In this document: positions 2,728 to 43,973 of the stretch, piece after piece | Numbering within the stretch: position 1 is the stretch's first letter | How the letters are laid out: the number at the start of each line of letters is the position of its first letter | Source: Burkholderiaceae bacterium | GTDB lineage: Bacteria > Pseudomonadota > Gammaproteobacteria > Burkholderiales > Burkholderiaceae_F | Direction of reading: 5' to 3' | Assembly: GCA_019236735.1 (NCBI GenBank) | Contig: JAFAIM010000088.1 | Location: forward strand, 3,427-67,426 | DNA: 64,000 bases | Notes under the pieces: model-generated | Told to the model about the DNA's origin: nothing | The model's database searches: none | What the model saw: only the letters and a program-made list of their open reading frames with translations | Program-made: the position numbers and the translations under genes

Positions 2728-2753
2728 AGACCGGCACAAGCAGGAGAGGACCG

Positions 2754-4286: not shown

Positions 4287-4308
4287 GGTGGGCAGCTTCA
4301 GGATCCAT

Positions 4309-6297
4309 ATGTTCAAGAAGATCCTGATCGCCAACCGCGGCGAGATTGCCTGCCGCGTGATCCGAACCGCGCGCACAATGGGAATCCGAACGGTCGCGGT
4401 CTACTCGGAAGCGGACCGCAACGCACGCCATGTCGAGCTGGCGGACGAGGCGGTGGCGATCGGCCCGCCGCCGTCGCGGCTGTCGTACCTGGACGCCGAG
4501 CGCATCATCGCCGCGTGCAGGCAGACCGGTGCCGAGGCGGTGCACCCCGGTTACGGATTCCTGTCGGAGAACGCTGCCTTTTGCGCCCGCCTCGAATCGG
4601 AGGGAATCGTCTTCATCGGCCCCAAAGCCGAATCGATCCGCGCGATGGGCGACAAAATCGCCTCCAAACGCATCGCCACCGCAGCCGGCGTCAGCACGAT
4701 TCCCGGCCACACCGACGTGATCGCGGACGCGGAACAGGCGGTGCGGATCGCCCGCGGCATCGGCTACCCGGTGATGATCAAGGCGAGCGCGGGCGGCGGC
4801 GGCAAGGGCTTGCGGGTCGCCGGCAACGATGCCGAGTGTCACGAAGGCTTTGCCTCGTGCCGAAACGAGGCGAGGAACGCGTTCGGCGACGACCGCGTCT
4901 TCATCGAAAAGTACATCACCGAGCCTCGTCACATCGAAATCCAGGTGCTCGGCGACGCGCACGGCCAAATGCTGTATTTGTGGGAGCGCGAATGCTCCAT
5001 CCAGCGCCGTCACCAGAAGGTGATCGAGGAGGCGCCATCGCCGTTCCTGGATGAGGCGATGCGCCGCGCGATGGGCGAGCAGGCTTGCGCGCTGGCCCGC
5101 GCGGTTCACTATCAGTCTGCGGGGACCGTGGAGTTCGTGGTCGATCCGCAGCGCAATTTCTACTTTCTCGAGATGAACACGCGGCTGCAGGTCGAGCATC
5201 CGGTGACCGAGATGATCACCGGGCTCGATCTGGTCGAGTGGATGATCCGGATCGCCGCCGGGGAACCGCTCGCGTTGCGGCAGGACCAGATCGGATGCCG
5301 GGGTTGGGCGATCGAGTGTCGGATCAACGCCGAAGATCCCTTCCGCGGCTTTTTGCCTTCTACCGGACGGCTGGTGCGCTTCGCGCCGCCATCCGAGACA
5401 GCCGATCGGGTACGCGTCGACACCGGCGTGTACGACGGCGACCAAATCTCGATCCACTACGACTCGCTGATCGCCAAACTGATCACTCACGGCCGGGACC
5501 GGCAACAGGCGGTCGCCTCGATGCGCGACGCATTGAACCGCTTCGTGGTTCGCGGCGTCACGACCAACATCCCCTTTCAGGCAGCACTGATGCGCAACGC
5601 CCGCTTCCTGCAGGGTCGCCTGCATACGGGGCTGATCACGGAAAGCTACCCCAATGGCTTTCACGCATCCGATGCGGTCCACCCGAATCCGCTGCTGGTG
5701 GCATCGGTTGCGGCGTACGCGCGCTGGCGCTACATCGACCGCGCAAGCAAGATCACTGGCCAGTTACGCGGGCATAGCCGCAAGGTCGGGTCGGAATGGA
5801 TCGTGCAGGTGGGCGCCGAGCCGATCCGGCTGAAACTGGAGCCGGGCGCCTTCGGGTGCGACATCCAGCACGAGGGCGCGCGCCATAGCTTGCGGACAAA
5901 TTGGCAGATCGGCCAGATCCTGTTCGAGGCTGATTTCGACGGACAACCCGTCTGCCTGCAGTTCGAGCGGGCCGGGCCTCGATATCGCATCGTTCATGAA
6001 GGGGTGACACTCGAGACGACCGTGCTGTCGCCGCGCGCGGCTGAGCTGCTGGCCCTGATGCCGGTGAAGAGTCCGCCCGATCTGTCCAAATTCTTGTTGT
6101 CGCCGATGCCGGGGCTGCTGGTCGAGGTGGCGGTGAAGACCGGACAGGAGGTCAAAGCGGGCGAACGACTGGCGACGATCGAAGCAATGAAAATGGAGAA
6201 CATCCTGCGCGCCGAACGCGATGCGGTTGTAGCCGAGCAGCTCGCCAGCGCGGGGGAAAGCGTCGCGGTCGATCAGCCGATCCTGCGATTCCGGTGA
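4309..6297 (+). CDS. pccA: propionyl/acetyl-CoA carboxylase alpha subunit (biotin carboxylase + BCCP domain)
   Basis: MFKKILIANRGEIA N-terminus, ATP-grasp KASAGGGGKG and C-terminal biotinylation motif EAMKMEN. 662 aa. Confidence 0.9.
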   Translation: MFKKILIANRGEIACRVIRTARTMGIRTVAVYSEADRNARHVELADEAVAIGPPPSRLSYLDAERIIAACRQTGAEAVHPGYGFLSENAAFCARLESEGIVFIGPKAESIRAMGDKIASKRIATAAGVSTIPGHTDVIADAEQAVRIARGIGYPVMIKASAGGGGKGLRVAGNDAECHEGFASCRNEARNAFGDDRVFIEKYITEPRHIEIQVLGDAHGQMLYLWERECSIQRRHQKVIEEAPSPFLDEAMRRAMGEQACALARAVHYQSAGTVEFVVDPQRNFYFLEMNTRLQVEHPVTEMITGLDLVEWMIRIAAGEPLALRQDQIGCRGWAIECRINAEDPFRGFLPSTGRLVRFAPPSETADRVRVDTGVYDGDQISIHYDSLIAKLITHGRDRQQAVASMRDALNRFVVRGVTTNIPFQAALMRNARFLQGRLHTGLITESYPNGFHASDAVHPNPLLVASVAAYARWRYIDRASKITGQLRGHSRKVGSEWIVQVGAEPIRLKLEPGAFGCDIQHEGARHSLRTNWQIGQILFEADFDGQPVCLQFERAGPRYRIVHEGVTLETTVLSPRAAELLALMPVKSPPDLSKFLLSPMPGLLVEVAVKTGQEVKAGERLATIEAMKMENILRAERDAVVAEQLASAGESVAVDQPILRFR

Positions 6298-6759
6298 TCG
6301 CCCGGGCGGGCGTTTAAAAGCAGGTGGACGAGCTTGTCGCCGCGTCGGATGCGTCGGATCCGGCGGTGCTCAACATTGTCGGCAGTCGGGTTGATTGGAC
6401 CTGGGGCGGGCTCCGAAACCGTGTCGTCGCCGTGAATGCTTGACTCGCTTAAGGTAACGCGTGGCCTTTGCGCTGCAGCATTCGTTGACCCCACTGGCCC
6501 AGACTAGTACTCTCGGTAATCAAAATGGATGCTTGGCGGAACCGACGCCAAGTGCTGCGCTTGACGGCACGTCTGTCCCCAACGGACAGGAGGAAGTCGT
6601 GTATCGATCGGCGTTTTGGGCGCGGCCGGAGGGGCTCGCGAACCGAGCGCAATTGGCGGGGTCGAGCCTTTCATTCCGTCTGTACCTTCAGCCGCGCCCG
6701 CGCGGGGCGCGCCTGACCGTGCCCCCGGAGCACGCAGGCTCATTTTCGGGCGACAAAAC

Positions 6760-7635
6760 ATGAAGCTCCTTTTCAAGTTCAACCTGGTGTTTTTGCTGTT
6801 ATTCGCCCTCGGGATCGCCGTGGCCGGGTTCTTTTCGTGGAATTTGCTGCAGCGCAACGCTCGCGAGGAGATCGCCGAGAACGCCCGGCTGATGATGGCC
6901 AATGCGTTGGCGGTGCGCGCCTACACGGTAGGGCAGATCAAGCCGCTGCTGGACACACAGATGAAGTACACGTTCCTGCCGCAGACGGTGCCCGCTTACG
7001 CGGCCACCGAAGTGGCGAATGCCCTGCGCAAGAAATACCCGGAGTACGACTACAAGGAGGCGATGCTGAACCCGACCAACCCGCGCGACCGCGCGGTCGA
7101 TTGGGAGGCGGACGTCATCAACCAATTCCGTGACGGCCGCGCCAACGGCGAGATCATGGACACACGCCTCACCCCGGGCGGCGGCGGGTCGTTGTTTCTC
7201 GCGCATCCCTTGAAGATCACCGACGGCGCATGCCTGGTTTGCCACAGCACAGTGGAGATCGCGCCGCGGACGATGGTGGACAAATACGGTCCGGCGAATG
7301 GCTTCGGCTGGAATCTGAACGAGATCGTCGGAGCGCAGATCGTCTCGGTGCCGACGTCGGTTCCGTTGGCTCGCGCCGAGCTCGCGTTCCGCACGTTCAT
7401 GATTTCGCTGGCCGGCGTGCTGGTTGGTATCGGGGTGCTGCTGAACCTGCTCCTGTACTGGATGTTCATCCGCCCGGTGACTCGGATCTCCAAGCTGGCT
7501 GACCGCGTCAGCCTGGGTGAGCTGGACGCCCCGGATTTGAACGTGCGCACTCGCGACGAGATCCAGACGCTGGCGGAGTCGCTAGCGCGGATGCGCAAGA
7601 GCATGGCGCAGGCGCTGCAGCTGCTCGGCGGCTGA
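6760..7635 (+). CDS. membrane sensor stub: DUF3365 (Tll0287-like) heme-c domain, TM helix and HAMP domain, with no output domain
   Basis: N-terminal TM helix, then a periplasmic domain with a CLVCH (CxxCH) heme-c site. A second TM helix follows, then HAMP (IRPVTRISKLADRV...EIQTLAESLARMRKSM) and the stop. 291 aa from ATG 6760. Confidence 0.7.
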   Translation: MKLLFKFNLVFLLLFALGIAVAGFFSWNLLQRNAREEIAENARLMMANALAVRAYTVGQIKPLLDTQMKYTFLPQTVPAYAATEVANALRKKYPEYDYKEAMLNPTNPRDRAVDWEADVINQFRDGRANGEIMDTRLTPGGGGSLFLAHPLKITDGACLVCHSTVEIAPRTMVDKYGPANGFGWNLNEIVGAQIVSVPTSVPLARAELAFRTFMISLAGVLVGIGVLLNLLLYWMFIRPVTRISKLADRVSLGELDAPDLNVRTRDEIQTLAESLARMRKSMAQALQLLGG

Positions 7636-7729
7636 CCGTCCCGGAGAGCGAGCCATCGACCCTCTAGCCGAAGTCCACGGACGCCAGCGCCCTCCCCAAA
7701 ACCTCGGGAAGTATCCGATCCTGGGTCAA

Positions 7730-9181
7730 GTGGGCAAGGGCGCGATGGGCGTCGTGTACAAATCATTCGACCCGGTGATCCGCCGGTCGGTGGCGCTGAA
7801 GACGATCCGCAAGGAGCTGCTGGCCGACGAGGATGAGGCTGCGGCATTCGGCGAGCGCTTCCGCAACGAGGCGCGCGCTGCCGGGCGCCTGCTGCACCCG
7901 GGAATCGTCGCGGTATACGAATACGGCGAGGATGAGCAGTACGCGTTCATCGCGATGGAGTACGTCGAGGGCAGCAGCCTGCGGCAATACTTCGAGCGCA
8001 AGGTACGTTTCGAAGAGCGTGATGTGGTCAGCGTGATGGCGCAGCTGCTCGACGCGCTGCAGTACGCACATGACCAGGGCGTCTGGCATCGCGACATCAA
8101 GCCGGCCAACATCATCATCATGAACAACGGCCGCGTGAAAGTGGCCGACTTTGGCATCGCGCGCGTCGAGAGCTCGACGCTGACCCAGGTCGGCGCCGTG
8201 ATGGGCACCCCCGGCTTTATCGCGCCCGAGCAGTACCTGGGCAAGGAAGTCGACCATCGCGTCGACCTGTTTGCAGCCGGCGTCGTGTTCTACGAGCTGC
8301 TCACCGGCGAGCCGCCATTTTCCGGTTCGAAAGAAGGCGTGATGTACAAGGTCTGTCACGAGACCCCGGCACCGCCTTCGGTCGTCTCCGGCAAACCGGC
8401 GCTGGCGCGGTTCGACGGGATCGCGCTGCGTGCGCTGGCCAAACGCCCTCACGAGCGCTACCCGACAGCGGACCGATTCCGCACCGATCTGCTCGACGCC
8501 TACGATCAGCCAGTGAGCCCGACCGTATCGGAACAAACGCTGATCCGGGACGTCGTTCGAGCGGTCGATCCGGGTGAGGGATCTTCGCAGCGCAGTGGAG
8601 CGCGCAAGTCTTCCCGCGGCGGTGCGTCGTCACCATACCGCCCGAGTAGCTCGGCTCCGCACGTCTCGACGATGTCCACGCAGATGCTGGCGGCGGCCGG
8701 TTGGAACGTGGAACAGCTGTCAGCGGTCGAGCGCAGCCTGGCGCATTTTCTCGGGCCGATCGCGCGCTGGATGGTTCGGCGCGCCGCGCGGGAGGCGCCC
8801 GACTTCGCCTCGCTCGTCAATCAACTGTCCGAACAGCTGACAACGCCGTCGGAGCGCTCGAAGTTTCTGCAGCAGAACGCCAGGCTGGCGGCCACCGGAA
8901 ACGGGCCGGCGCGACTGGCCGAGCCGGTGGACGACGACGCCACAGTGATCCCGGGTGCCAACAACTTCCGGCCAACGCAGGGTCCCGGGCCCACTGCCGA
9001 CGACGTCGCACGGGCCGGGAGGCTTTTGGCGGTGCACATCGGTCCGATCGCACAGATCCTGGCGCGGCAAACGGCGACGAGGCCCGGCATCACGCGCGCC
9101 GCGTTCCTGGCGCAACTGGCCGAGGGCCTCAACGACACCGACCGGGAGCGCTTCCTGCGGGACTTCGACCGGTCGCGGTAG
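7730..9181 (+). CDS. Hanks-type Ser/Thr protein kinase with duplicated C-terminal domain
   Basis: GKGAMGVVY glycine loop, HRDIKPANI, DFG and APE motifs. The track start (GTG 7730) lies inside the glycine loop, so the true start is probably upstream (see findings). Confidence 0.85.
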   Translation: MGKGAMGVVYKSFDPVIRRSVALKTIRKELLADEDEAAAFGERFRNEARAAGRLLHPGIVAVYEYGEDEQYAFIAMEYVEGSSLRQYFERKVRFEERDVVSVMAQLLDALQYAHDQGVWHRDIKPANIIIMNNGRVKVADFGIARVESSTLTQVGAVMGTPGFIAPEQYLGKEVDHRVDLFAAGVVFYELLTGEPPFSGSKEGVMYKVCHETPAPPSVVSGKPALARFDGIALRALAKRPHERYPTADRFRTDLLDAYDQPVSPTVSEQTLIRDVVRAVDPGEGSSQRSGARKSSRGGASSPYRPSSSAPHVSTMSTQMLAAAGWNVEQLSAVERSLAHFLGPIARWMVRRAAREAPDFASLVNQLSEQLTTPSERSKFLQQNARLAATGNGPARLAEPVDDDATVIPGANNFRPTQGPGPTADDVARAGRLLAVHIGPIAQILARQTATRPGITRAAFLAQLAEGLNDTDRERFLRDFDRSR

Positions 9182-9227
9182 GCCACGGCCGGCCGCTTTC
9201 GAAGCACCGTCGGAGGAGAAACGGGCG

Positions 9228-9863
9228 ATGGAAGCTCCAGAAAAGAGGGTCTTGCTCGTCGAGGATCACGAGTTGATCCGCCTCGGCACCGGATTGCTGC
9301 TGGAGTCGCTCGGCGACGTGCGCTGCCACATCAAGCTGTGCCGCACGCTCGACGAGGCGCGCGCGGCTTGCCGCGACGAGGGTCCATTTGACTTGACGCT
9401 GCTCGACCTGAACCTGGTCGACTCCAAGGGCCTGCAAGGGTTGCGCACCCTGCGCGACGAGTTCCCGGATTTTCCGATCGCGGTGCTTACGGGTACGCAG
9501 GACGAATTCGTGGTGCGGCAGGCGCAGGCAATGGGAGCGATCGGGTATCTGCTCAAGTCGTGGGCGCCGGAGCAGATCAAAGTCGCCCTGCTCTCGCTGT
9601 TGCGGCCGACTTCCGGATCAGCGGCGCGCGCGACGATCTCGGAACGCTTTCCGAAGCTCGCCGGAACGTCCCACTACGATCGCGTGGCGGAGCTCGGTCC
9701 GCGCCATTTGCAGATCCTCGAACTGATCCTGGAGGGGTGCAACAATCAGGAAATCAGCACGACCACGGGCCTGTCACTGGGTACCGTCAAGAACTACGTT
9801 TCGGCCATCCTGCTGGCGCTGGACGTCGAGAGCCGGGCCCACCTGATCAGCCTGTTCCATTGA
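9228..9863 (+). CDS. LuxR/NarL-family response regulator
   Basis: ATG 9228 preceded by GGAGGAGA. Receiver domain (VLLVEDHELIR, LLDLNL) plus C-terminal LuxR HTH (NQEISTTTGLSLGTVKNYVSAIL). 211 aa. Confidence 0.85.
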   Translation: MEAPEKRVLLVEDHELIRLGTGLLLESLGDVRCHIKLCRTLDEARAACRDEGPFDLTLLDLNLVDSKGLQGLRTLRDEFPDFPIAVLTGTQDEFVVRQAQAMGAIGYLLKSWAPEQIKVALLSLLRPTSGSAARATISERFPKLAGTSHYDRVAELGPRHLQILELILEGCNNQEISTTTGLSLGTVKNYVSAILLALDVESRAHLISLFH

Positions 9864-11605
9864 GCGTTTCCTCGACAGCGGGTGCCGCCGATGGGCGCGT
9901 CGATGCGGAGCTGTACCGAAGTGCATACGTTGCGGATCGACGCGGCGCACTTGCGGGCGTACTGGCCGCGATCTTCGCCGCCTCAGCGCTGCACCAACAT
10001 GGCGCGAGAACCGGTGTATGGGTGTGGGCTGGCTGCTACGTCGCACTAGCGCTTTCTCGCGTGCTGCTGCTCGCGCGGGTCGGCACCCTACCGGTGCGGC
10101 CGCTGCAGCCGCGCACGCTGCGCAAGGCCTGGCTCACACTGCTGACGATATCGGCGGTCATCTGGGGCGCCGCACCGCCATTTTTCCTGTCGCAGCAGGC
10201 AGCGACCGTCGGATTGCTGACAGGCATATGGCTGGCGGCAGCAGGTCTATCGGCTCCACTGGTGGCCGCAGTCAGGCCCGCGATCTACTTGTGGCTGCTG
10301 CCGTCCGTCGTGCCGCTGCTGTTCGCGTTGGCGGCGAAAGGATCCGGCGAAGCGCTGGTGCTGATGGCGCTCGGATCGCTTTTCCTGCTGCTGCTGCTGC
10401 GACTGGTACTGGAACAGAACGACGCCTTGTCCGCCGGACTTGCGGCGCGGTTCCAGAACGAGGATCTGGTCCGGCAACTGCGCACGCAGGTCGAGGTCGC
10501 GGCCCGCGCGAACCAGGACAAGACCCGCTTCCTGGCCTCAGCAGTGCACGACCTGCGACAGCCGCTGCACGCGCTGGGGCTGTTCTGTGCGGCGCTCGAT
10601 CGCAGGCTGCAGGGCATCCCGGAGCATCCGCTGATCAAGAACATGATGTCGTCGATCGAGTCGCTGGAGACCTCGTTCGGAGCGATGTTGGACATCTCGC
10701 GGTTGGACGCAGGGGTGGTGCAGACCGAGGCACAGACTTTCCCAGTGCGCGACCTTTTCCGGCGCCTGTACCAGCAGTTTGGCGGCGATGCCGAAGGGCG
10801 CGACATTTCGCTGCGTTTCCGGGCCGCGCGCCGCCTGGTGCGCAGCGACCCGCAGTTGCTCGAGCGAGTGCTTGCAAACCTGGTGCAGAACGCTCTGCGC
10901 TACACCCGCCGTGGAGGCGTGCTGGTTGCGGCGCGGCGGCGCCGCACCGACGTGGCACTCGAGGTATGGGATACCGGCGTGGGAATTCCGCCCGACAAGC
11001 TCGAAATGATCTTCGAAGAGTTCTATCAGATCGACAACCCGGAACGGGACCGCGGTCGCGGCCTCGGTATGGGCCTGGCGATCGTTCGCAGGCTGTGCAA
11101 CCTGCTGGGGCACTCGCTCGAGGTCTATTCGAAGCCGGGTCTCGGGACGATGTTTCGCGTCGTAGTGCCGGCTGGAAGCCCTTCGGATCCGGCCCAGCCG
11201 GCGCTGGAAGCCGAAACCAGGCCGCCGCGCACCGACGTACGAGTCATCGTGCTGTTGATCGACGACGAGCGGGCGATTCGCGAGGCCACGAGCGAGTTGC
11301 TGCGTCCGCTTGGCGTCGAAGTCTTGACGGCCTCGACGATCGCCGAAGCCGTCCAAGCGGTGCGGCAATCCGATGCGCCGATCGACGTTGTGCTGTCGGA
11401 CTGGCGCCTGCGAGGCACCGAAACCGGGGTGGAGGCGGTGCGGGCGGTACGCAGGGTGTGCGGCGAGTCCACCCCCGCGGTGCTTGTCACCGGTGATACG
11501 TCGGCCGAGGTGTTGACCCTGGCGCACGAAAATGGGCTTGTCGTGCTGCACAAACCGCTCCAACCGCGCGAACTCTTGCGGCTGATCCGGCGCCTGCAGC
11601 GGTGA
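9860..11605 (+). CDS. hybrid sensor histidine kinase (polytopic membrane N-terminus, HisKA, HATPase, receiver)
   Basis: H-box SAVHDLRQPLHAL, N-box LVQNALRYT, G-boxes VWDTGVGIP and GLGMGLAIV, C-terminal receiver (VLLIDDE...VLSDWRL). Proposed TTG 9860 overlaps the regulator stop (ATTGA). Start is uncertain. Confidence 0.8.
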   Translation: MSVSSTAGAADGRVDAELYRSAYVADRRGALAGVLAAIFAASALHQHGARTGVWVWAGCYVALALSRVLLLARVGTLPVRPLQPRTLRKAWLTLLTISAVIWGAAPPFFLSQQAATVGLLTGIWLAAAGLSAPLVAAVRPAIYLWLLPSVVPLLFALAAKGSGEALVLMALGSLFLLLLLRLVLEQNDALSAGLAARFQNEDLVRQLRTQVEVAARANQDKTRFLASAVHDLRQPLHALGLFCAALDRRLQGIPEHPLIKNMMSSIESLETSFGAMLDISRLDAGVVQTEAQTFPVRDLFRRLYQQFGGDAEGRDISLRFRAARRLVRSDPQLLERVLANLVQNALRYTRRGGVLVAARRRRTDVALEVWDTGVGIPPDKLEMIFEEFYQIDNPERDRGRGLGMGLAIVRRLCNLLGHSLEVYSKPGLGTMFRVVVPAGSPSDPAQPALEAETRPPRTDVRVIVLLIDDERAIREATSELLRPLGVEVLTASTIAEAVQAVRQSDAPIDVVLSDWRLRGTETGVEAVRAVRRVCGESTPAVLVTGDTSAEVLTLAHENGLVVLHKPLQPRELLRLIRRLQR

Positions 11606-11744
11606 GGCTTAAGGACATGACTTTGGTCACTAGCGCCCATTGCATGGGTCGCGATCTACTCGAACCGGCGCCTGCGTCACCGGGGCGACCGGGCTCCGAA
11701 GGGGGCGAGCCCTTTCCCGTCACCACGAACGGACGAAATCGAAT

Positions 11745-13136
11745 ATGACCCTCGTATTGCGTGGGCTTTCGCTCAATGAGGAACCGCTGAGCAATCCCCT
11801 GGTCGGGCGCTTTGACGACCGGGGCGGCGAAATCGGCCGATCGGACACCGCGACTTTCACGCTGCCCGATCCGGAGCGCCTGATCTCGCGCGTGCACGCG
11901 CGCATTTCGCATGCCGGGCACGCGTACTGGATCGAGAACGTCAGCGCCGCCGGTCCCATGTTGCACAACGGCCGTCCTCTGAGTTCGGGCATGCGGGTAA
12001 GCCTGGGCGAAGGCGACGAACTGCGAATCGGCGGCTATCGGCTAACGGTGAGTTTCGAGGACGACGAAACGAGCGCAACGATCCTGCGCGGGCGTACGAC
12101 CGCCCAAGCCCCGCCTGCTGGCGCTGGCGCAGCGCGCGGTGCCGCACCGGCGCCTGTGCGCTCGCCCGAGGTATCCGCGCGCAGTGCCCCGCCGGCGCCT
12201 GCCCGTTCGCCCGAGTCGGCCGCGCGACCGTCGGCCTCTCCGAACGTTGCCAACCTTGCGAACGCCGCAAACGTTCCCAACGCTGCCAACGTTGCGCGAG
12301 CCTCGGCGGCCGCGCCATCTCTGCGTTCCGTTGAACCGGCCGCGGCCGCCCCGCCTCTTCGTCCCGTCGAAGCGTCCGAGCCGGCGCCTGTCCAAGCACC
12401 CGCCGCGCCACAGCCGACACCGACCGTTGGGCGCCCGGCGCAAGGCCGCGGCGCCAAGTCCGCGCGCGCGCGGGCGCAAACCGAGTCCTCGTTGGACGCA
12501 GAAGCGCTCTGGCGCGGCTTCCAGGAGGGCGTGGGCGTCGAGCTACCCCTTCCGGGCGGCCCCTCGCCAGAGCTGTTCAGCGCAATTGGGGCGATGCTCC
12601 GAATCGCGGTCAACGGGCTTCACCGTCTGATCGCGATGCGCGCCGTAGCCAAAACCGAAATGCACGCGGACTTGACGATGATTCAAGTGCGCGGCAACAA
12701 CCCGATGAAGTTCGCGCCGGAGCCGGCCGTCGCGCTGAAGATGCTCCTGCAGCCGCCGATGCAAGGCTTCATGTCCGGACCCGCGGCGCTGCGAGATTCG
12801 GTGATCGATCTGCAGTCGCACCAGGTCGGCGTGATGGCGGGGATGCGCGCCGCGCTGGCGGCGGTGCTGGAGCGCTTCGACCCAGTCCAACTGGAGACGC
12901 AGCTAAGCGCCCGCTCGTTCCTGGATACGCTGATGCCGTCGAACCGCCGCGCCAAGCTGTGGGAGCTGTATATCGAGCATGCACGCTCGCTCAGGGATGA
13001 GGCGCAGGACGACTTCGGGCGGCTGTTCGGCGAAGCGTTCCTCGAAGCCTACAACGCTCAGGTGCGGGCGCTGGAGGCGGCCGCGGACGAAGCGGCTGCG
13101 CCGGCTGCGTATCCGGCGGGCCCGAAAGCTCGATGA
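11745..13136 (+). CDS. tagH: T6SS-associated FHA-domain protein TagH/Fha
   Basis: N-terminal FHA (IGRSDTATFTLPDPERLISRVHARI...YWIENVS). An Ala/Pro/Asn low-complexity linker follows, then a conserved TagH-type C-terminal domain. 463 aa from ATG 11745. Confidence 0.8.
   Translation: MTLVLRGLSLNEEPLSNPLVGRFDDRGGEIGRSDTATFTLPDPERLISRVHARISHAGHAYWIENVSAAGPMLHNGRPLSSGMRVSLGEGDELRIGGYRLTVSFEDDETSATILRGRTTAQAPPAGAGAARGAAPAPVRSPEVSARSAPPAPARSPESAARPSASPNVANLANAANVPNAANVARASAAAPSLRSVEPAAAAPPLRPVEASEPAPVQAPAAPQPTPTVGRPAQGRGAKSARARAQTESSLDAEALWRGFQEGVGVELPLPGGPSPELFSAIGAMLRIAVNGLHRLIAMRAVAKTEMHADLTMIQVRGNNPMKFAPEPAVALKMLLQPPMQGFMSGPAALRDSVIDLQSHQVGVMAGMRAALAAVLERFDPVQLETQLSARSFLDTLMPSNRRAKLWELYIEHARSLRDEAQDDFGRLFGEAFLEAYNAQVRALEAAADEAAAPAAYPAGPKAR
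12147..12236 (+). repeat. 45-nt in-frame tandem duplication in the tagH linker
   Basis: ccggcgcct... restarts at 12147 and 12192. Encodes PAPVRSPEVSARSAP / PAPARSPESAARPSA. Confidence 0.75.
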
Positions 13137-13894
13137 TGCTGTCGGTTCGCGTTTCTCAGCGCTCCTGCACCGGCGCCCGGGAGCGCAACGAGGATTGCGT
13201 CGGGGTCGAGCACATCGATGGGCACTGGTGCATGGTTCTGTCTGATGGCGCCGGCGGGCACCGCGACGGGGCGCTCGCATCGCGGCTGGTCGTCGATCGG
13301 GTTCTCGCGGGTTTTCGCAGTCGGCCACCGACCGATGGGCCGGACCTGAGCGAACTGATGCTCGATGCACACGACGGTATTATCGCCGCGCAGCGCGCGG
13401 CAGGCGCCATCGACAGGGCCGGCGCGATGCATGCGACCGCGGTCGTGCTGCTGGTCGACGCCAGCAGCGGCCGGGCGCTATGGGGCCACGTCGGTGATTC
13501 GCGGCTGTACCTGTTGCGCGACCGCGGCATCTCGGCTTTGACGCGGGACGACAGCGTCCTGCAATGGATGGTCGACGCGGGGCTGTGGCGCCCCGGCGAA
13601 CTGTCCAGTCATCCCCAGCGCAACCAGCTGATGGCAGCGCTGGGAGCCGACGAAGGCGTCGAGCCGCATGTCAACGAGGAGCCGTTCGAGCTGCGTCGTG
13701 GCGACGCGTTCGTGCTGTGCAGTGACGGCTGGTGGGGCAGCGTCGCAGACGCGGAGATCGAACGGCTGTGTGCGGGAGCCGCCGGTCCAGACGAGTGGCT
13801 CGACGCGATGATCGCGTGCGCGGTTGCGCGCGCCGATCCGCGCCAGGACAATTTCTCGGCGATCGGCTGCTGGATCGGCGACAGAACCGGATGA
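13133..13894 (+). CDS. PP2C-family Ser/Thr phosphatase (PppA-like)
   Basis: RNEDCVGV, VLSDGAGGH and LCSDGWWG motifs. Its ATG overlaps the tagH stop (ATGA). Confidence 0.85.
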   Translation: MMLSVRVSQRSCTGARERNEDCVGVEHIDGHWCMVLSDGAGGHRDGALASRLVVDRVLAGFRSRPPTDGPDLSELMLDAHDGIIAAQRAAGAIDRAGAMHATAVVLLVDASSGRALWGHVGDSRLYLLRDRGISALTRDDSVLQWMVDAGLWRPGELSSHPQRNQLMAALGADEGVEPHVNEEPFELRRGDAFVLCSDGWWGSVADAEIERLCAGAAGPDEWLDAMIACAVARADPRQDNFSAIGCWIGDRTG

Positions 13895-13949
13895 CGCGGC
13901 TTGATGCAGCGGCCGCCTCCGTCGAGCCTGCCACTTTCTTGCGAACTCC

Positions 13950-15209
13950 ATGCCGATCAAGCCACCTGCCAGCTCCGCCGATTCGGATCCGGACACGCCG
14001 TTCGGCACCCAGCTGTCCGTGCGCGGCGGCGCCGCGCCCGGGCGCGGCGCCTCGCGCCGCGCGGTTACACCATCATGTCCCAATCCGCTGATCTCGGAAG
14101 CCGACGAACTGCTCGCACTGGTGCCACAACTTCGATCGACGGCGCAGATCGCCGATCTTGCGCAGTTGCGGGATCATGTTTCCCTGCTGCTGCAGCGCTT
14201 CGACGAGAGCTTGCGCCAACGCAAAATTGCTGCCGGCTTGTGCCAGAAGGCGCACTTCGTGCTGTGCGCATTGATCGACGAAGTGGTCCAGGCGATGCCT
14301 TGGGGTGCGAACGGCGCTTGGGAGCGGCTCAATCCGCTGGAAGCTGTCGCCGGGGCGAACCCGACCGAAGCGTCGCTGCGCGCGTTCGCGCAAATGGCGA
14401 CCGACCGAACCGGCAGCCGCGAACTGCGCGAGTTGATCTACGTAGCGCTGGCGCTGAGCTTCGACGCGCGCGGACGCATCACCGCGGCAGGAGTCGGGCA
14501 GGCCGACACCATGCGCGCGCGCCTGGCCGATTCGCTGAAACGCAAGGGCGATGCGGCCGCGCGAGCGCTGTCGGCGCGCTGGCAGCCCGTCATCGGGCGC
14601 GCGAGCGCGCTCGGAAGCTGGCTGCCGCTGTGGGTCGGCATCTGCCTGGTCGGCGCCCTTTTGGCGGTGCTGTACGCGTGGCTCACGTTGGCGCTGGCTT
14701 CGCAATCGGATCGCGTATTCGCGCGGATCACCGCGCTGCACCCGCCGATAGCGGCCGCTGCGGCGCCCGCTGCCGCCGTACAGCCTCGCCTGACACCGCT
14801 ACTCGCGCAGGTACAGCCGCGCGGCTTGCAGGTGCGCGACGAGATCGATCGCAGCATCGTCACGCTGGACGACCGGGCGCTGTTCGAGCCCGGCGACGCA
14901 AGCCTGCTGCGGGCTGGCGCCGATTCGCTGCGGCCAGTGGCCAGAGCGTTGCAGGCAGTCCCCGGCCAAGTGGTCGTGATCGGCCATACCGATGGCGAGA
15001 CCGAACGCTCCGCCCGGTTTTCCTCCAACTGGGAGCTGTCGGTTGAGCGCGCGCGTGCCGTGCGCGACGCGCTGCTGCTGTTTGGGGTTCCGTCACAACG
15101 GATGCGCTACGACGGCCGCGCCGATTCCGAGCCGCTCGCAGCGGAATCGACGAATCACACGCTGCCGCATAGCGGTCGAATCGAAATCGAGTTGCTCGTA
15201 GGCCGATGA
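13950..15209 (+). CDS. tssL: TssL/DotU family protein fused to a C-terminal OmpA/MotB-like peptidoglycan-binding domain
   Basis: DotU core (LRELIYVALALSFDARGR), one TM helix (WLPLWVGICLVGALLAVLYAWL) and an OmpA-like end (VVVIGHTDGE...SNWELSVERARAVRDAL). Confidence 0.8.
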   Translation: MPIKPPASSADSDPDTPFGTQLSVRGGAAPGRGASRRAVTPSCPNPLISEADELLALVPQLRSTAQIADLAQLRDHVSLLLQRFDESLRQRKIAAGLCQKAHFVLCALIDEVVQAMPWGANGAWERLNPLEAVAGANPTEASLRAFAQMATDRTGSRELRELIYVALALSFDARGRITAAGVGQADTMRARLADSLKRKGDAAARALSARWQPVIGRASALGSWLPLWVGICLVGALLAVLYAWLTLALASQSDRVFARITALHPPIAAAAAPAAAVQPRLTPLLAQVQPRGLQVRDEIDRSIVTLDDRALFEPGDASLLRAGADSLRPVARALQAVPGQVVVIGHTDGETERSARFSSNWELSVERARAVRDALLLFGVPSQRMRYDGRADSEPLAAESTNHTLPHSGRIEIELLVGR

Positions 15210-18001
15210 GCGTCCGTCCCTGGCAACTGGCTACGCTCGGTTTGACCGGCTTTGGGCTCGCCACATGGTTTGGCGGGCCATTGCTGGCGATCGGCCGCGA
15301 TGTGCCCTTGGCCTCCGCCGGTGCGCGCGTCGCACTGATCGGTGCATTCGCGCTTTGCTACCTGGCCTACCAGGCGTGGGCAGCGAATCACGCCCGGCGA
15401 CGCAACGAAAGCGTGGTCGCGCACCTTGCACCCACTCCGGACGCTGGTGAGACGAGCGAGCTTGCGCAGCTGCGCAAGCGTTTCGCGGACGCTGTCGAGA
15501 CGCTGCGAAGGACTCGTTTCGGTCCGCGCGGCGGAACGTGGTCGTCGCTGTCGTGGAAGTTCGCTCGCCAATATCTGTATCAGCTGCCTTGGTACCTGAT
15601 CGTCGGCGCACCCGGCGCGGGCAAGACGACTGCGCTGTTGAACTCCGGTTTGCAGTTTCCGCTCGCTGGCGAATTCGGCCGAGGCTCCATCAAGGGCGTC
15701 GGCGGCACCCGCAACTGCGACTGGTGGTTCACCGACCGCGCAGTGCTGCTGGACACGGCCGGCCGCTACACGACGCACGAAGCCCACCGCATGGCGGATC
15801 GGCAGGCATGGGAGGGGTTCCTCGAATTGCTCAAGCGGGCGCGGCCGCGCCAGCCGCTGAACGGCGTCCTGGTTGCGGTTTCGATCACCGATCTGCTGGT
15901 GTTCGATCCAATCCAGCGCGCCCAGCACGCAGCGACGCTACGCGCGCGCCTGGACGAAATTCGCTCGACGATCGGCATCCGCCTGCCGGTATACCTGCTG
16001 TTGACGAAGTGCGATCTTCTACCCGGATTCCTGGATTCGTTCTTTCCGCTCGACAAGAAAGCGCGCGACCAGGTCTGGGGCACGACGTTCGACTTCTCTG
16101 CCTCCGAGAGAGGGCGCGCTGCCGATTATTTCGCGGCAGCGTTCGAGCAACTGGTCGCGCGGCTGCACGAGGGCCTGATCGAGCGGATGCAGGCCGAGCG
16201 CGATCCGCAAAGGCGCGCCCGCATTTTCTCGTTTCCACGCCACTTCGCTGCGCTCGGACACCCGCTGGACGACCTGGTGCGACAGGTTTTCGCCGCCGGA
16301 AACTCCTCCGCCCTCGAGGGCGCACCCTGCCTGCGCGGCGTGTACTTCACCAGCGGCACGCAGGAAGGCACGCCGATCGACCGCGCGCTTTCGGCGCTGG
16401 GGCGCGAATTGGGACTGGAGCGGCAGATCCTGCCGCCGAACCAGAGCACCGGTAAGAGCTTTTTCCTTGCAGCCCTTCTGCGCGATATCGTGTTCGCCGA
16501 GTCCGAGATCGCCGGTCGCTCGCCTCGCTTGCAGCGCTGGCGCTCCCGCGCGATCACCGCGTTGCTGGTTGGGTTACAGTGCGGTGGCGTGCTGTTGGCC
16601 GCGAACTGGGCAACCAACTACACGCGCAGCTCCGCCGAAATCGATGAGATCGCGCAAAGCGCACAGGCCGCCGCTGCGCCGGTGCAGTCCCTGCGCACGC
16701 CCTCCGGAAGCGACCCCCGGCCGCTGCTGCCGGCGTTAAACACGCTGCAAGATCTGGTCAAATCGGCGTCTCCGTCGTCCGGAGAATCCGCGCCGCTGGC
16801 GCCATTTCGCCGCCATCAGCGGCTGAAGCTCGACGCGGCGGCCAGGCAAACCTACGATCGCGCGTTGCTGGAAACCCTACTGCCCACAATCGCACGAGCA
16901 TGCGAAGAGCAGATGCGAAGCGGGTCCGATCCGAATCTCCAGTACGAGGCGCTGAAGGCTTACACGATGATGCACGATGCTGCGCATTTCGACGCCGCGG
17001 CGCTGAAGGGCTTCGTGTTGTACGACTGGGACACGGCATTGGAACCTCCGTTGAGCCGGGAGGAACGCACGCAGCTGGCTGCGCACCTGCACGCTCTTGT
17101 CGAGGCGGGAGCTGCGGGCACGATGAGCGGCACCGACTCGCGCCTGGTCGAATCGGTGCGTGCCCACCTCGCCGGGCAACCGGTGTCGCAACGCATTGCG
17201 GCACGCCTGAGGTCGATTCTGAGTGCGAGCTCCTATCCGCCCTTCGAAGTGGCATCGCTCGGGGCCCCCGCCGCAGAACTGTTTGCGGGCAAGGACGGAC
17301 ACTCGGAACCGCGCAGCGTGCCCGGCCGCTACACGGTGCAGGCGTACCGCGACACGGTCCTGAATACGCTGCCAGCGCTGCCGTCGCAATTGGCCGTCGA
17401 GGCAACGTGGGTGCTCGGTGCCGCGCCGCCGGCGAGCGAAAGGGCGGCGACCGGACGGGCTATCGCCGAAGCGCTTGCCTCATATCTGGACAGCTACCAA
17501 CGCAGCTGGTCCACGCTGGTCGATGACCTGCGCTTGAGGCATGCAACAAGCGAGAACGAAGCGATCGCCCAGGCGCAGAACCTTGCGAGGACCGACGGAC
17601 CGCTAGTGTCGCTGCTGCGGCAGATCGTTCAGCAGACGTCGTTGCACAGCACATCCGCGACCACCGCTCTGGGCGATGCTGCTGCACCGCTGGAGGGATT
17701 GGTCGAGGAGCACTTTGCCGCGCTGCGGGACCTGGTGCGAGCAGATAAGAGCGGACGAGCAGGCCTCGATTCGGCGCTCGCCGACTTCCGGTCGGTGCAA
17801 ACGTTACGACCCATGGCAGCTCCTTCGAATGGCTCAGGCGCGCGGGCGCCGCTCGAGGAGCTGGAGCGCATCCGGGCCGAGTCGCGCCGCTTTCCGGAGC
17901 CCGTGCGCACGATGCTGCTGTCGCTGGCGGTGCCACCGGCGGCGCAACAGCCCGGATCGACTGCTGCGCACGCCGCTGCGCCCGGCGCGGCAGCCCGGTA
18001 A
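15206..18001 (+). CDS. tssM: TssM/IcmF family protein, short form (931 aa)
   Basis: Two N-terminal TM helices, Walker A GAPGAGKTT, DTAGRY, a third TM near residue 460 and an ImcF-related region (YEALKAYTMMHD). Its ATG overlaps the tssL stop (ATGA). Confidence 0.8.
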   Translation: MSVRPWQLATLGLTGFGLATWFGGPLLAIGRDVPLASAGARVALIGAFALCYLAYQAWAANHARRRNESVVAHLAPTPDAGETSELAQLRKRFADAVETLRRTRFGPRGGTWSSLSWKFARQYLYQLPWYLIVGAPGAGKTTALLNSGLQFPLAGEFGRGSIKGVGGTRNCDWWFTDRAVLLDTAGRYTTHEAHRMADRQAWEGFLELLKRARPRQPLNGVLVAVSITDLLVFDPIQRAQHAATLRARLDEIRSTIGIRLPVYLLLTKCDLLPGFLDSFFPLDKKARDQVWGTTFDFSASERGRAADYFAAAFEQLVARLHEGLIERMQAERDPQRRARIFSFPRHFAALGHPLDDLVRQVFAAGNSSALEGAPCLRGVYFTSGTQEGTPIDRALSALGRELGLERQILPPNQSTGKSFFLAALLRDIVFAESEIAGRSPRLQRWRSRAITALLVGLQCGGVLLAANWATNYTRSSAEIDEIAQSAQAAAAPVQSLRTPSGSDPRPLLPALNTLQDLVKSASPSSGESAPLAPFRRHQRLKLDAAARQTYDRALLETLLPTIARACEEQMRSGSDPNLQYEALKAYTMMHDAAHFDAAALKGFVLYDWDTALEPPLSREERTQLAAHLHALVEAGAAGTMSGTDSRLVESVRAHLAGQPVSQRIAARLRSILSASSYPPFEVASLGAPAAELFAGKDGHSEPRSVPGRYTVQAYRDTVLNTLPALPSQLAVEATWVLGAAPPASERAATGRAIAEALASYLDSYQRSWSTLVDDLRLRHATSENEAIAQAQNLARTDGPLVSLLRQIVQQTSLHSTSATTALGDAAAPLEGLVEEHFAALRDLVRADKSGRAGLDSALADFRSVQTLRPMAAPSNGSGARAPLEELERIRAESRRFPEPVRTMLLSLAVPPAAQQPGSTAAHAAAPGAAAR

Positions 18002-18058
18002 AGTGTCGCGACGCACTGGCGCTCCGGAGGCCGCACAGACTGATAGGCAGACAGGCAG

Positions 18059-18715
18059 ATGCTCCCCCACTCGGCCGTCTCCTGGCCGGCGCAGGCCGGC
18101 TGGTTCGGAAAGATCCCAGCCTTGGGCGATTTTGCGGGACGCAGGCTGCCGCCGGGATTCGTCAGCACTTGGGATCGTTGGCTCTCCGATGGGCTACATG
18201 CCGCACAGCAGGCGCTCGGCGCGCGCTGGCTCGAGTCGTACAACAGCGCGCCGCTGTGGCGGTTCGGACTCACACCGGAGCTGATCGACGAGCAATACTG
18301 GGGCGGCGTACTGATGGCGAATGTCGATCGGGTCGGACGCCAGTTCCCTTTGACGATCGCTGCGCCAGCGCCGCAGGCGGCGTGCATCTATAGCCGCAAA
18401 CTCGAGGGATGGATTGTAGCGGCGCTGCGTGCCCGGCGTCCCGACTGCGATCCGGAAGCGCTGGAAACTGCACTGGCTGCGGCTGCCGAAGCTGAGCGGC
18501 TTGGTGCGAGATCGGACACTTCCGACGCTGCCGACACTGCCGACATCGCCGACACCGGTCGCGACGCACTACGTGAGGCGCTCGCAGCTGCCGGCCGCGG
18601 AATCAGCCTATGGTGGCCGTGGCGCGCAGGCAGCGCGAACGAGCACGAAACTGTCTGGAGCGTCGACGGCCTGCCGCGCGCCGACCAGTTTGTCAGGCTG
18701 TTCAGCTGCGGTTAG
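18059..18715 (+). CDS. tagF: T6SS-associated protein TagF (ImpM/DUF2094)
   Basis: Hallmark N-terminal GWFGKIPALGDF motif, then RLPPGFVSTWDRWL. 218 aa. Confidence 0.8.
   Translation: MLPHSAVSWPAQAGWFGKIPALGDFAGRRLPPGFVSTWDRWLSDGLHAAQQALGARWLESYNSAPLWRFGLTPELIDEQYWGGVLMANVDRVGRQFPLTIAAPAPQAACIYSRKLEGWIVAALRARRPDCDPEALETALAAAAEAERLGARSDTSDAADTADIADTGRDALREALAAAGRGISLWWPWRAGSANEHETVWSVDGLPRADQFVRLFSCG
18512..18556 (+). repeat. five tandem 9-nt units in tagF
   Basis: tcggacact tccgacgct gccgacact gccgacatc gccgacacc, encoding SDT SDA ADT ADI ADT. Confidence 0.85.
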
Positions 18716-18752
18716 CCGGCTGTTGCTGCAGCCGCACCAACACCGCGGGTGT

Positions 18753-19571
18753 TCAACTGCCCGGATTGTTCTTCGGGACGACGGTCCAATGCTCGGTCGG
18801 CGGCGAGTCTCCGAGCACGACGGTACCGCCCTCGCTCCACGGCGCGTGCCGGTAATCGAACGCCTTGGCGATGCGCGGCTTGACGACCTCGAAGAACGGC
18901 GAGGCGTCGAAATCGCGTGGAACGTACAGGCTGTAGTGGCGGATGCGCCAAAGCTCGCGCGCCTCCTCCTCCTGCTCCGCTTCTACCTCGCGCCTTCGCG
19001 AGATGACCGGCAAGATCGGATAACGCACCGAGTCGAACGCCTGTGCGATCAGCGTTGAACAGATCGCCCGCGTGGGATCGCCGCTGCCGAAGGCGATCAT
19101 TCGGCGCCTCAGGCGCGCCGGCAGCGGGATCGGAAACAGATAGCGCGCCAGGTCCAACACGTTCTTCAGGTCGTAACGGTGGCCCAAACGCTGGAGCGCA
19201 TACTGGATCAGGCGCTCGCGATCCTCGGCAGTCAGTTTCACCGGCCGACAGATTCGCACGCGAAAGCGGCCGTAGGCCGATAGCGGCACCGCGCGCACCC
19301 CCTCCAGGACATCGGCCTCGACCAGTGTCGTAGGCTCTCCGGCTACCTGCGGAAGCTCGGGCCTGACGCCGACGAACAGCGCGGCGTGCGACCACATCGA
19401 CTGCGTCAGGTACTTGACCGCGGCGCTCATCCGCGTGTTGCCTTCGACCAGCAGCACGTCTCCGGGCGCGAGCGTGTCGGCCACCAGGCGCGCATCCGTG
19501 CTGGTGCCGCTGGGGCGGGCGACCGGGTTTGTCAGATAAGTGGCAAGGGCTCGCCCGAGGGACTCGAACAT
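18753..19571 (-). CDS. YiiX/YaeF-like permuted papain (NlpC/P60 superfamily) hydrolase
   Basis: PGDVLLVEG...SHAALFVG followed by a catalytic-Cys context (RAICSTLIAQAF). Family assignment is by eye. Confidence 0.5.
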   Translation of the reverse strand: MFESLGRALATYLTNPVARPSGTSTDARLVADTLAPGDVLLVEGNTRMSAAVKYLTQSMWSHAALFVGVRPELPQVAGEPTTLVEADVLEGVRAVPLSAYGRFRVRICRPVKLTAEDRERLIQYALQRLGHRYDLKNVLDLARYLFPIPLPARLRRRMIAFGSGDPTRAICSTLIAQAFDSVRYPILPVISRRREVEAEQEEEARELWRIRHYSLYVPRDFDASPFFEVVKPRIAKAFDYRHAPWSEGGTVVLGDSPPTEHWTVVPKNNPGS

Positions 19572-43682: not shown

Positions 43683-43973
43683 GGTGGTCGCGGCTGGCGG
43701 GATCGGCAACGCTCGAGGCCACGAGCGGCGCCGCGCTGCACCTATACCAAAATGCGGCGGCGAATATTGGACTTTGGTCCCATTGGCGAGCTCGACCGTG
43801 CCGGAAGCGCGTTACCGCAAGCGCGGGCCGATGCATACGCAGGCTTCCAAGAGTTGCAGGGGCCACCGCAGGACGGGATTGGACCAAAGTCCTATTGCCT
43901 GCGCGACTAGCTGGGCCTAGAGGCTGCCCGAGTGCTCAAGCCCAGGTGCGTACTCTTGAGGGGAGGCTACGAG

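Follow-up and report, generated by a model that had tools for sequence, protein, structure and literature searches.

A stretch of 64,000 nucleotides from a Burkholderiaceae bacterium (GenBank assembly GCA_019236735.1, contig JAFAIM010000088.1; the whole stretch is called the window below) carries nine plus-strand genes that, on a reading we consider fairly probable, tie a heme-binding receptor to the control of a type VI secretion system (T6SS)-like module. The first gene (G1) encodes a receptor of the class known as CHH and the second (G2) a Ser/Thr kinase predicted to dock on it; the pair would feed a T6SS-type threonine switch encoded downstream, with a response regulator (G3) and a hybrid histidine kinase (G4) as a second layer. 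An earlier reading of the sequence by a model (the original prediction) had described four same-strand, closely spaced genes wired as a sensory front end directly upstream of an FHA gene. Pfam and hydropathy analyses found all of these features in place (Table 1), the ATG of the FHA gene, tagH, at position 11745 lying 139 nt past the G4 stop.

The arrangement of these genes is not due to chance, because the order G1-G2-G3-G4-tagH-PP2C is kept in all six relatives of the window's clade whose contigs are long enough (the contig of a seventh, L036, stops within G4) and because the ratio of nonsynonymous to synonymous substitutions (dN/dS) is 0.07 to 0.24, at dS values of 0.7 to 1.1, for G1 to G4 and the PP2C gene compared with relatives. 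Lack of such conservation was one of the two outcomes that the original prediction had named as its refutation. The cluster lies in a 72.8-kb contig of a 3.3-Mb genome that is 95% complete, the G+C content of the window being about 65%. It is flanked by a propionyl-CoA carboxylase operon (2430-6297) and by a convergent, minus-strand C92-peptidase gene (18753-19571). From G1 to G4 the genes are separated by 19 nt (G1-G2) and 46 nt (G2-G3) and then overlap by 4 nt (G3/G4). Beyond tagH, tagH/PP2C and tssL/tssM again overlap by 4 nt, while 55 nt separate PP2C from tssL and 57 nt separate tssM from tagF. A single strand, gaps of at most 139 nt, and a sole terminator-like site after tagF suggest an operon-like layout; the terminator search was a consensus scan only and returned fewer sites than expected from shuffled sequence. 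A sigma-70 promoter scan gave no match, and by eye the tagH spacer offers no sigma-54 promoter with the proper GG/GC spacing.

What kind of receptor is G1? It matches the Tll0287-like family (PF11845; DUF3365/Cache_heme) with a Pfam E value of 5e-38 over residues 31-198 and a HAMP domain with an E value of 1e-8 over residues 232-281 of 291 (nucleotides 7453-7602), after which Pfam detects no output domain. Hydropathy places transmembrane (TM) segments near residues 1-31 and 208-240. The CLVCH heme-c site (7231-7245) contains the only two cysteines of the protein, as in a signaling-type heme pocket, and because the distal Cys is absent, G1 resembles in its sequence the ligand-sensing group rather than the redox-type members; its domain makeup likewise places it with the signaling group ("Cluster 2") of the PF11845 family. 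Tll0287 of Thermosynechococcus (PDB 5B82), the founding member, shares the Pfam family and the CXXCH heme c motif, but it is a stand-alone protein with Cys/His heme ligation, whereas G1 lacks a third cysteine and carries fused TM and HAMP segments. G1 is 45% identical over its full length to Pseudomonas CHH proteins, with C158, C161, and H162 invariant in the alignment, and has a dN/dS of 0.15. Cytochrome c maturation genes are encoded in the same genome.

A homologous system has recently been characterized. It is the subject of two preprints posted in 2026 by the laboratories of Crane and Zhulin (10.64898/2026.05.25.727664, 10.64898/2026.02.01.703092); DUF3365/Tll0287 now goes by the name sCache_heme. 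In the CHH preprint, by Deshpande, Xu, Dunleavy, Zhulin, and Crane (bioRxiv 10.64898/2026.05.25.727664), the CHH receptor of P. azotoformans, built of Cache_heme, TM, and a terminal HAMP, binds nitric oxide (NO), and the kinase encoded in the same operon docks on the HAMP dimer with nanomolar affinity. Docking involves two pseudo-symmetric C-terminal helical bundles with the key helices IGPLARFLVRKSLN and IGPIARIVVSRALR. The NO-bound receptor is phosphorylated faster, at HAMP Thr256, and the authors describe the downstream consequences of the system as unknown. The proposal in the original prediction that the kinase is the missing output of the HAMP stub has thereby been shown experimentally for the homologous Pseudomonas pair; it is correct, but having already been published (May 2026), it is no longer new. 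Searches of PDB sequences yielded no entry for a CHH protein or a kinase complex, only Af1503-type HAMP domains and PknB-type kinase domains.

G2 has the properties expected of such a docked kinase. Its Pkinase domain (Pfam E value, 1.7e-52) has PknB as the top PDB match (E value, 2e-55), neither a TM segment by hydropathy nor a PASTA or periplasmic domain by Pfam was found, and it is 41% identical to the Pseudomonas kinases over residues 15-505. In a 26-sequence kinase alignment, the catalytic residues K49, HRD 145-147, and DFG 165-167 are invariant, as are the GP.A motif (G367, P368, and A370) and IGPIA (I462-A466), and both published docking helices have counterparts in G2. An AlphaFold2 model predicts a kinase domain (15-290), disordered linkers (301-340 and 420-442), a helical module (342-414), and a four-helix module (448-506), the two modules at pLDDT 82 to 92; this predicted two-module architecture matches the preprint's description. 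Pfam recognizes no family in the C terminus of G2 even at E values up to 10. The docking motif is absent from G3 to G9, so there is no sign in the sequences that the histidine kinase docks on the receptor as G2 would.

For comparison with Pseudomonas, eight loci encoding the first docking helix exactly were found by its back-translation, and all eight are ordered CHH, kinase, PP2C. They and the window share the receptor layout (TM, sCache_heme with CXXCH and no distal Cys, TM, terminal HAMP), a kinase gene directly downstream whose product is PknB-like, lacks TM and PASTA segments, and has two [ILV]GP[IL]A helical modules, and a PP2C gene nearby. They differ in that Pseudomonas has the HAMP phosphosite Thr256 and an ATG start for the kinase, where the window has Leu and ATC, and only the window has a response regulator and a hybrid histidine kinase after the kinase gene, with TagH, PP2C, TssL, TssM, and TagF joined on. 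The position equivalent to Thr256 is occupied by Val, Leu, or Phe in the other aligned Burkholderiales; its replacement in G1 points to another substrate.

How general is the pairing? The original prediction had suggested looking for co-occurrence of DUF3365-HAMP stubs with Hanks kinases, and in a sample of 80 loci encoding G1 homologs, a Hanks kinase lies within 600 nt of the CHH gene in 60, co-oriented in Proteobacteria and convergent in Acidobacteria. Four of the 20 loci without an adjacent kinase have a contig end within 1.3 kb. A docking helix is present in every one of the 56 receptor-adjacent kinases analyzed (two copies in 46, one in 10), and in the source genome of the window the docking motif occurs in 2 of about 12 Hanks kinases, both adjoining a CHH gene. 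The arrangement had been called unusual. The features behind that judgment are real, but the output-less stub turns out to belong to a widespread receptor class, and the kinase that seemed to have no start is explained by a conserved ATC, described below.

Six of the kinase-less CHH loci have a neighboring open reading frame (172 to 729 amino acids) with an [ILV]GP[ILM]A docking-helix motif, and the docking module thus seems portable to other partner proteins. The second CHH-kinase pair of the source genome (C76:57776-60251, minus strand) sits amid housekeeping genes, with no T6SS-type or FecR-like neighbor; its receptor shares 58% identity with G1 and its kinase 44% with G2. With two pairs present in a single genome, the question arises of how cross talk is avoided.

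What might the kinase of the window act on? The genes downstream resemble the T6SS threonine phosphorylation pathway known from P. aeruginosa H1 (PpkA/PppA/Fha1/TagF) and A. tumefaciens (PMC3953482; review PMC13584744), since a Hanks kinase, PP2C, TagH, TagF, TssL, and TssM are co-oriented in both. The 72.8-kb contig encodes no Hanks kinase other than G2, which sits beside a PP2C and an FHA gene, the partners that a threonine-phosphorylation switch requires. In Agrobacterium, PpkA phosphorylates TssL at Thr14, and the phosphorylated Thr14 is bound by Fha (PMC3953482). The A. tumefaciens pathway and the window are alike in having a Thr in the N-terminal tail of TssL: the 45-residue tail in the window contains a motif conserved in the clade, DxDT(P/M/L)F(G/A)T, whose conserved Thr is positioned like Thr14. 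The recurrent placement of the CHH pair beside such genes leads to a specific proposal for its substrate: the N-tail of TssL, or TagH. There are also differences. PpkA is a membrane kinase with its own periplasmic domain, whereas G2 is soluble, has no periplasmic domain, and is predicted to be recruited to a separate heme receptor. Unlike the canonical pathway, the window cluster has no TagQRST-type genes among its annotated genes, its genome has no sheath or baseplate genes, and its TssM, which matches positions 3-924 of the 1,168 of the TIGR03348 profile, lacks the C-terminal domain.

The association is not confined to the window. Of the 80 loci, 16 have TagH/TssL/TssM/TagF-type genes no more than 10 kb from the CHH gene, in varied orders and in two phyla, and the T6SS-neighbor label requires at least 7 changes on the kinase tree. 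Of ten such genomes, four have TssC; among the six that lack it is an isolate, Azohydromonas australica DSM 1124. Undibacterium sp. TJN25, whose kinase is sister to the characterized Pseudomonas clade, has the order ClpV, putative effectors, VgrG, FecR-like, CHH, kinase, TagH, TssK, TssL, TssM, with TssF and TssC 11 to 17 kb upstream on the same contig, making a complete T6SS cluster. TssC and TssF also share the contig with CHH in metagenome-assembled genomes of a Leptothrix (19 to 23 kb away) and an Acidobacteriaceae member (15 to 22 kb). A reverse search starting from TagH used poor peptide patterns and returned a single close locus.

The original prediction that threonine phosphorylation converges on TagH/TssL/TssM is supported by these sequence comparisons, and a T6SS-type phospho-switch is a likely candidate for the downstream target of the CHH-kinase pair. 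A broader version, in which CHH pairs in general would let a heme ligand (NO) gate the Fha/TssL threonine-phosphorylation switch of T6SS membrane complexes, is put forward only tentatively; just as tentatively, it would cover both real T6SS clusters (Undibacterium, Acidobacteriaceae, and probably Leptothrix) and the sheath-less modules of the window's clade. If it is true, it would (i) supply the downstream target missing from the CHH preprint, (ii) add a gas or redox cue, a periplasmic heme ligand (NO), to the posttranslational control of the T6SS, and (iii) provide a split alternative to the membrane kinase PpkA. Culturable carriers exist in Undibacterium sp. TJN25 and A. australica DSM 1124. 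The recurrence of CHH-kinase pairs beside TagH/TssL/TssM was not found in the literature searched: neither CHH preprint mentions FHA or T6SS genes, and neither they nor a review on T6SS accessory factors from 2026 mentions a CHH-T6SS link.

Between the kinase gene and tagH lie G3 and G4. G3 contains Response_reg (E value, 2.6e-17) and GerE (E value, 9e-10) domains; being 83 to 91% identical within the clade, with a dN/dS of 0.07 to 0.09, it is the most conserved protein of the cluster. G4 has about six TM segments followed by HisKA, HATPase_c, and Response_reg domains, its N-terminal 217 amino acids matching no Pfam family even at E values up to 10. Its TTG start, proposed in the original prediction, overlaps the TGA stop of G3 (TTGA), and the junction CCATTGAG is identical in the window and seven relatives, which bears the proposal out. 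G3 and G4 occupy the same place in every clade relative whose contig reaches it and are absent outside the clade. As to their affinities, the catalytic core of G4 is closest to the NahK/ErcS family, and G3 has a weak ErdR-like NCBIfam match (69 bits). NahK of P. aeruginosa is controlled by the heme-based NO sensor NosP. The NosP-NahK (ErcS')/ErdR system and G4/G3 share the HisKA-HATPase-REC core and the weak ErdR likeness, but G4 has a six-TM domain at its N terminus with no PAS domain detected, and there is no FIST/NosP-type gene among its annotated neighbors. The NO theme common to NosP-NahK and CHH is only a lead.

A further element accompanies the pair. The spacer between G4 and tagH contains a palindrome-bearing 15-mer, ATGACTTTGGTCACT, around which the spacer is otherwise only about 50% identical; the 15-mer is found at no more than two mismatches in the spacers of all six relatives with contigs covering it. 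Its exact form occurs just once in the source genome, and CHH loci that lack G3/G4 do not have it. Relatives carry a second copy of the palindrome ahead of the FecR-like gene, in a divergent promoter region. The palindrome fits an operator of a local regulon, for which it is a candidate only. A clade-specific regulator-kinase pair co-occurring with this palindrome was not found in the literature searched. Clade-wide synteny and the palindrome upstream of tagH make the proposed convergence of His-Asp signaling on TagH/TssL/TssM, also part of the original prediction, plausible but weak. Two inverted, perfectly palindromic copies of GGACTTTGGTCC, about 100 nt apart (43770-43781 and 43882-43893), lie upstream of an OprB porin gene near a transposase. 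Since their flanks differ and an insertion sequence and a tRNA remnant lie beside them, these copies probably have nothing to do with the tagH palindrome and represent a feature of a mobile element, not a tagH operator.

Put together, these parts suggest a mechanism in which we infer the ligand, the substrates, the role of G3/G4, and the function of TssL-TssM in a genome without a T6SS. A small ligand, NO by analogy with the Pseudomonas homolog, would bind the periplasmic c-type heme of a G1 dimer, whose coordination site should be exchangeable because there is no distal cysteine. The signal would cross the membrane to the C-terminal HAMP bundle, where each of the two C-terminal helical modules of G2 would grip one HAMP subunit and so hold the kinase in place. 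The G1/G2 pair would most likely take the PpkA/TagE role in a T6SS-type threonine-phosphorylation switch: G2 would phosphorylate the N-terminal tail of TssL and/or TagH, the resulting phosphothreonine would be recognized by the FHA domain of TagH, with the PP2C phosphatase as the resetting enzyme and TagF as an opposing factor. The ATC start behind a good Shine-Dalgarno sequence would keep G2 well below the level of the receptor. G3 and the NahK/ErcS-like G4 would form a clade-specific second layer, probably a transcriptional one acting via the palindrome upstream of tagH.

Several observations weigh against this scheme. On the side of the second layer, the match of G4 to the NahK/ErcS family scores below the cut-off (NF041832, 344 bits against 400; NF041831, 269 against 1,500), no Hpt protein for a phosphorelay from G4 to G3 was identified, and degenerate copies of the palindrome occur elsewhere in the source genome, upstream of unrelated small one-TM-protein and FecR-like genes, where they may mark a small regulon. 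Are G3 and G4, then, a passenger two-component system that was inserted in one lineage and controls other genes, with no tie to the sensor or to TssL/TssM? This is rather unlikely, though it is the alternative that we take most seriously. The scattered palindrome-like sites speak for it, as do the limitation of the pair to the window's clade, its absence from the other CHH-T6SS loci L012, L014, L029, and L044, and a paralogous histidine kinase/response regulator pair on contig C15 of the same genome. Yet all clade members that allowed a check retain both the location of the pair and its TTGA overlap, no other protein of the cluster is as conserved as G3, the palindrome stands in the tagH spacer of exactly those loci that have G3/G4, and no plus-strand terminator-like site separates G2 from tagF.

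On the side of the T6SS link, about 70% of the CHH-kinase loci have no T6SS-type neighbors, including the characterized Pseudomonas pair and the C76 pair; on this evidence, the CHH pair is a general-purpose module whose outputs vary. TagH is missing altogether from one genome that has a stand-alone CHH pair. The source genome, at the completeness given above, has neither TssC/VipB nor TssF, that is, no sheath or baseplate genes; its TssM lacks the IcmF_C domain, and the FecR-like gene that accompanies the receptor elsewhere has been lost from the window. In Undibacterium sp. TJN25, a 915-amino-acid protein with Pkinase, dCache_1, and HAMP domains is encoded beside TagF and PP2C (L094:5271-8018, minus strand). 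The notion that the CHH-kinase pair replaces PpkA in real T6SS clusters is weakened by this protein: with a second kinase and PP2C in the cluster, the pair is there an additional input and not necessarily the kinase of the threonine phosphorylation pathway. The 915-amino-acid kinase, which shares its cluster with the split pair, is fused to a Cache receptor and likewise ends in an "uncoupled" HAMP.

These observations are what one would cite for a self-contained G1/G2 pair whose substrates are the receptor or unlinked proteins and whose adjacency to the module reflects shared inheritance or co-regulation; the case rests on the many loci without T6SS-type neighbors (in Pseudomonas, CHH-STK-PP2C only), the carrier without TagH, and the second kinase of Undibacterium. 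Such a pair is nonetheless an unlikely explanation. The T6SS association arises in at least five separate places on the kinase tree, in two phyla and with differing gene orders, and far exceeds what would be expected if, as the author estimates, genes of this kind make up roughly 1% of a genome. Moreover, the contig holds no other kinase to serve the PP2C and FHA genes of the window, and the published receptor phosphosite is absent from G1. The coupling of the CHH pair to the threonine switch remains the reading we favor.

The start of G2 deserves separate treatment. The conserved N terminus of the kinase, LGKYPILGQVGKGAMG, precedes the first canonical start codon, GTG 7730, which falls within the glycine loop, and none of the frames contains ATG, GTG, or TTG from 7636 to 7729. 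As the original prediction had noticed, the kinase has no canonical start; what it has is a Shine-Dalgarno sequence followed by ATC, conserved in the clade. GGAG-N(6-8)-ATC is found in 8 of the 9 closest clade relatives, L005 having ATT, and six of those relatives, like the window, offer no plausible canonical start for the kinase. More distant homologs have ATG or GTG 5 to 13 codons ahead of LGKY. Among relatives, the codons from ATC to LGKY vary chiefly at third positions, and G2 read from ATC has a dN/dS of 0.16 to 0.24, by which a pseudogene reading of G2 is rejected. In E. coli reporters, AUC starts yield about 1 to 2% of the AUG level and a product that begins with Met (bioRxiv 10.1101/063800). 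By analogy, translation of the kinase would be low, perhaps coupled to termination, which suggests deliberate expression at substoichiometric levels relative to the receptor dimer that it binds. The AUU starts of E. coli infC and pcnB resemble that of G2 in being near-cognate AUH codons behind a normal Shine-Dalgarno sequence; the apparent G2 codon differs in being ATC, on a signaling kinase, in multiple species, 19 nt past the stop of the partner gene. Such an ATC, a rare near-cognate start kept across species on a signaling enzyme, was not found in the literature searched.

Could the cluster instead be a decaying remnant whose genes no longer function? The missing canonical start, the remnant state of the FecR-like gene, the truncated TssM, and the absence of TssC and TssF might suggest so. 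The idea is very improbable given that purifying selection acts on every gene tested, G2 read from ATC included, that all frames are intact and the catalytic residues invariant, and that independently assembled genomes of 6 to 8 species preserve the Shine-Dalgarno sequence, the ATC, and the gene order. Scarcely credible is a single sensor-HAMP-kinase gene split by frameshift, sequencing error, or programmed recoding, an idea prompted by the lack of a canonical start and by a kinase frame that, followed upstream from GTG 7730, runs through 48 codons before it meets a stop (7583-7585) within the end of G1. It is rejected because close relatives differ in how the G2 frame lies relative to that of G1 (offset by +1, offset by +2, or in the same frame with a stop), so that no single shift restores a fusion. 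It is also at odds with the roughly 60 loci in which the two genes are distinct, with the system studied by experiment, in which the two proteins are distinct, and with the Shine-Dalgarno sequence ahead of ATC.

One companion of the receptor has left only a trace. An intact gene for a secreted FecR-like protein (about 300 amino acids) lies directly upstream of the CHH gene in about 38 loci, including all nine closest relatives, Undibacterium, and the Pseudomonas loci matching the characterized system. Because it ends at the CHH start in those loci, the conserved unit is FecR-like, CHH, and kinase. Whereas the Pseudomonas loci keep the gene, the window has lost all but its 3' end, recognizable from a tail, GGVEPFIPSVPSAAPARGAPDRAP, that matches the FecR-like tail of L004 and from a DNA block, ATTCCGTCTGTACCT, conserved among relatives. 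FecR-like homologs are encoded elsewhere in the source genome. The CHH preprint does not mention the FecR-like gene, and its loss from in front of the receptor, as in the window, was not found in the literature searched.

Table 1. Coordinates of features in the window; entries beginning with L or C refer to related loci and to other contigs of the source genome, respectively
Feature	Position	Strand	Basis or remark
Remnant of FecR-like gene 3' end (about 170 nt)	6590..6759 (approximate limits)	+	Tail and DNA-block match to relatives
G1, CHH receptor, 291 aa	6760..7635	+	Pfam, hydropathy, alignment; TM1, Cache_heme, TM2, HAMP, no output domain
Shine-Dalgarno GGAGAG (7643-7648) and ATC start codon (7655-7657) of G2	7643..7657	+	Relatives
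G2, soluble PknB-like Ser/Thr kinase with two C-terminal HAMP-docking helical modules (predicted)	7655..9181	+	Pfam, PDB, AlphaFold2
G2 docking helix 1, LGPIARWMVRRAAR	8750-8791	+	Alignment with published helix
G2 docking helix 2, IGPIAQILARQTAT	9038-9079	+	Alignment with published helix
G3, NarL/FixJ-type response regulator (REC + GerE/LuxR HTH)	9228..9863	+	Pfam, NCBIfam
G4, polytopic hybrid histidine kinase, TTG start	9860..11605	+	Pfam, hydropathy
Palindrome-containing 15-mer ATGACTTTGGTCACT (TGAC-N4-GTCA)	11617..11631	+	Conserved spacer core; candidate operator/promoter element
TagH (FHA + T6SS_FHA_C), likely phosphothreonine reader	11745..13136	+	Pfam; TIGR03354, 255 bits
PP2C phosphatase, PppA-like	13133..13894	+	Pfam PP2C_2; NCBIfam Stp1 family
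TssL (DotU + OmpA)	13950..15209	+	Pfam
TssM homolog, 931 aa, without IcmF_C	15206..18001	+	Pfam IcmF-related_N and IcmF-related only
TagF	18059..18715	+	Pfam TagF_N
Terminator-like hairpin	18746..18763	+	Sole plus-strand site within 6200-19200; 31 nt past tagF stop
Degenerate palindrome copies, source genome	C2:7812, C32:75865 and 76927, C12:7790, C60:35009		About 80-210 nt upstream of genes
FecR-like genes	L004:9001-9975, L001:4390-5436, L044:9017-9886, L086:5485-6369		
Kinase-less docking-motif neighbors	L054:10899-11426, L062:10909-11427, L056:10883-11614, L065:11048-11884, L072:12275-14455, L074:10898-13087		

A few observations stand apart from the argument. The source genome carries a lone Hcp-family gene (C91:10914-11558, minus strand; PF05638, E value 7e-30) whose product has a signal-peptide-like N terminus. 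In the cyanobacterial Calothrix-type loci L077, L079, and L080 (about 10979-11875), a histidine kinase takes the place of the Ser/Thr kinase directly after the CHH-like gene, and CHH genes occur in tandem in L072 and L073.

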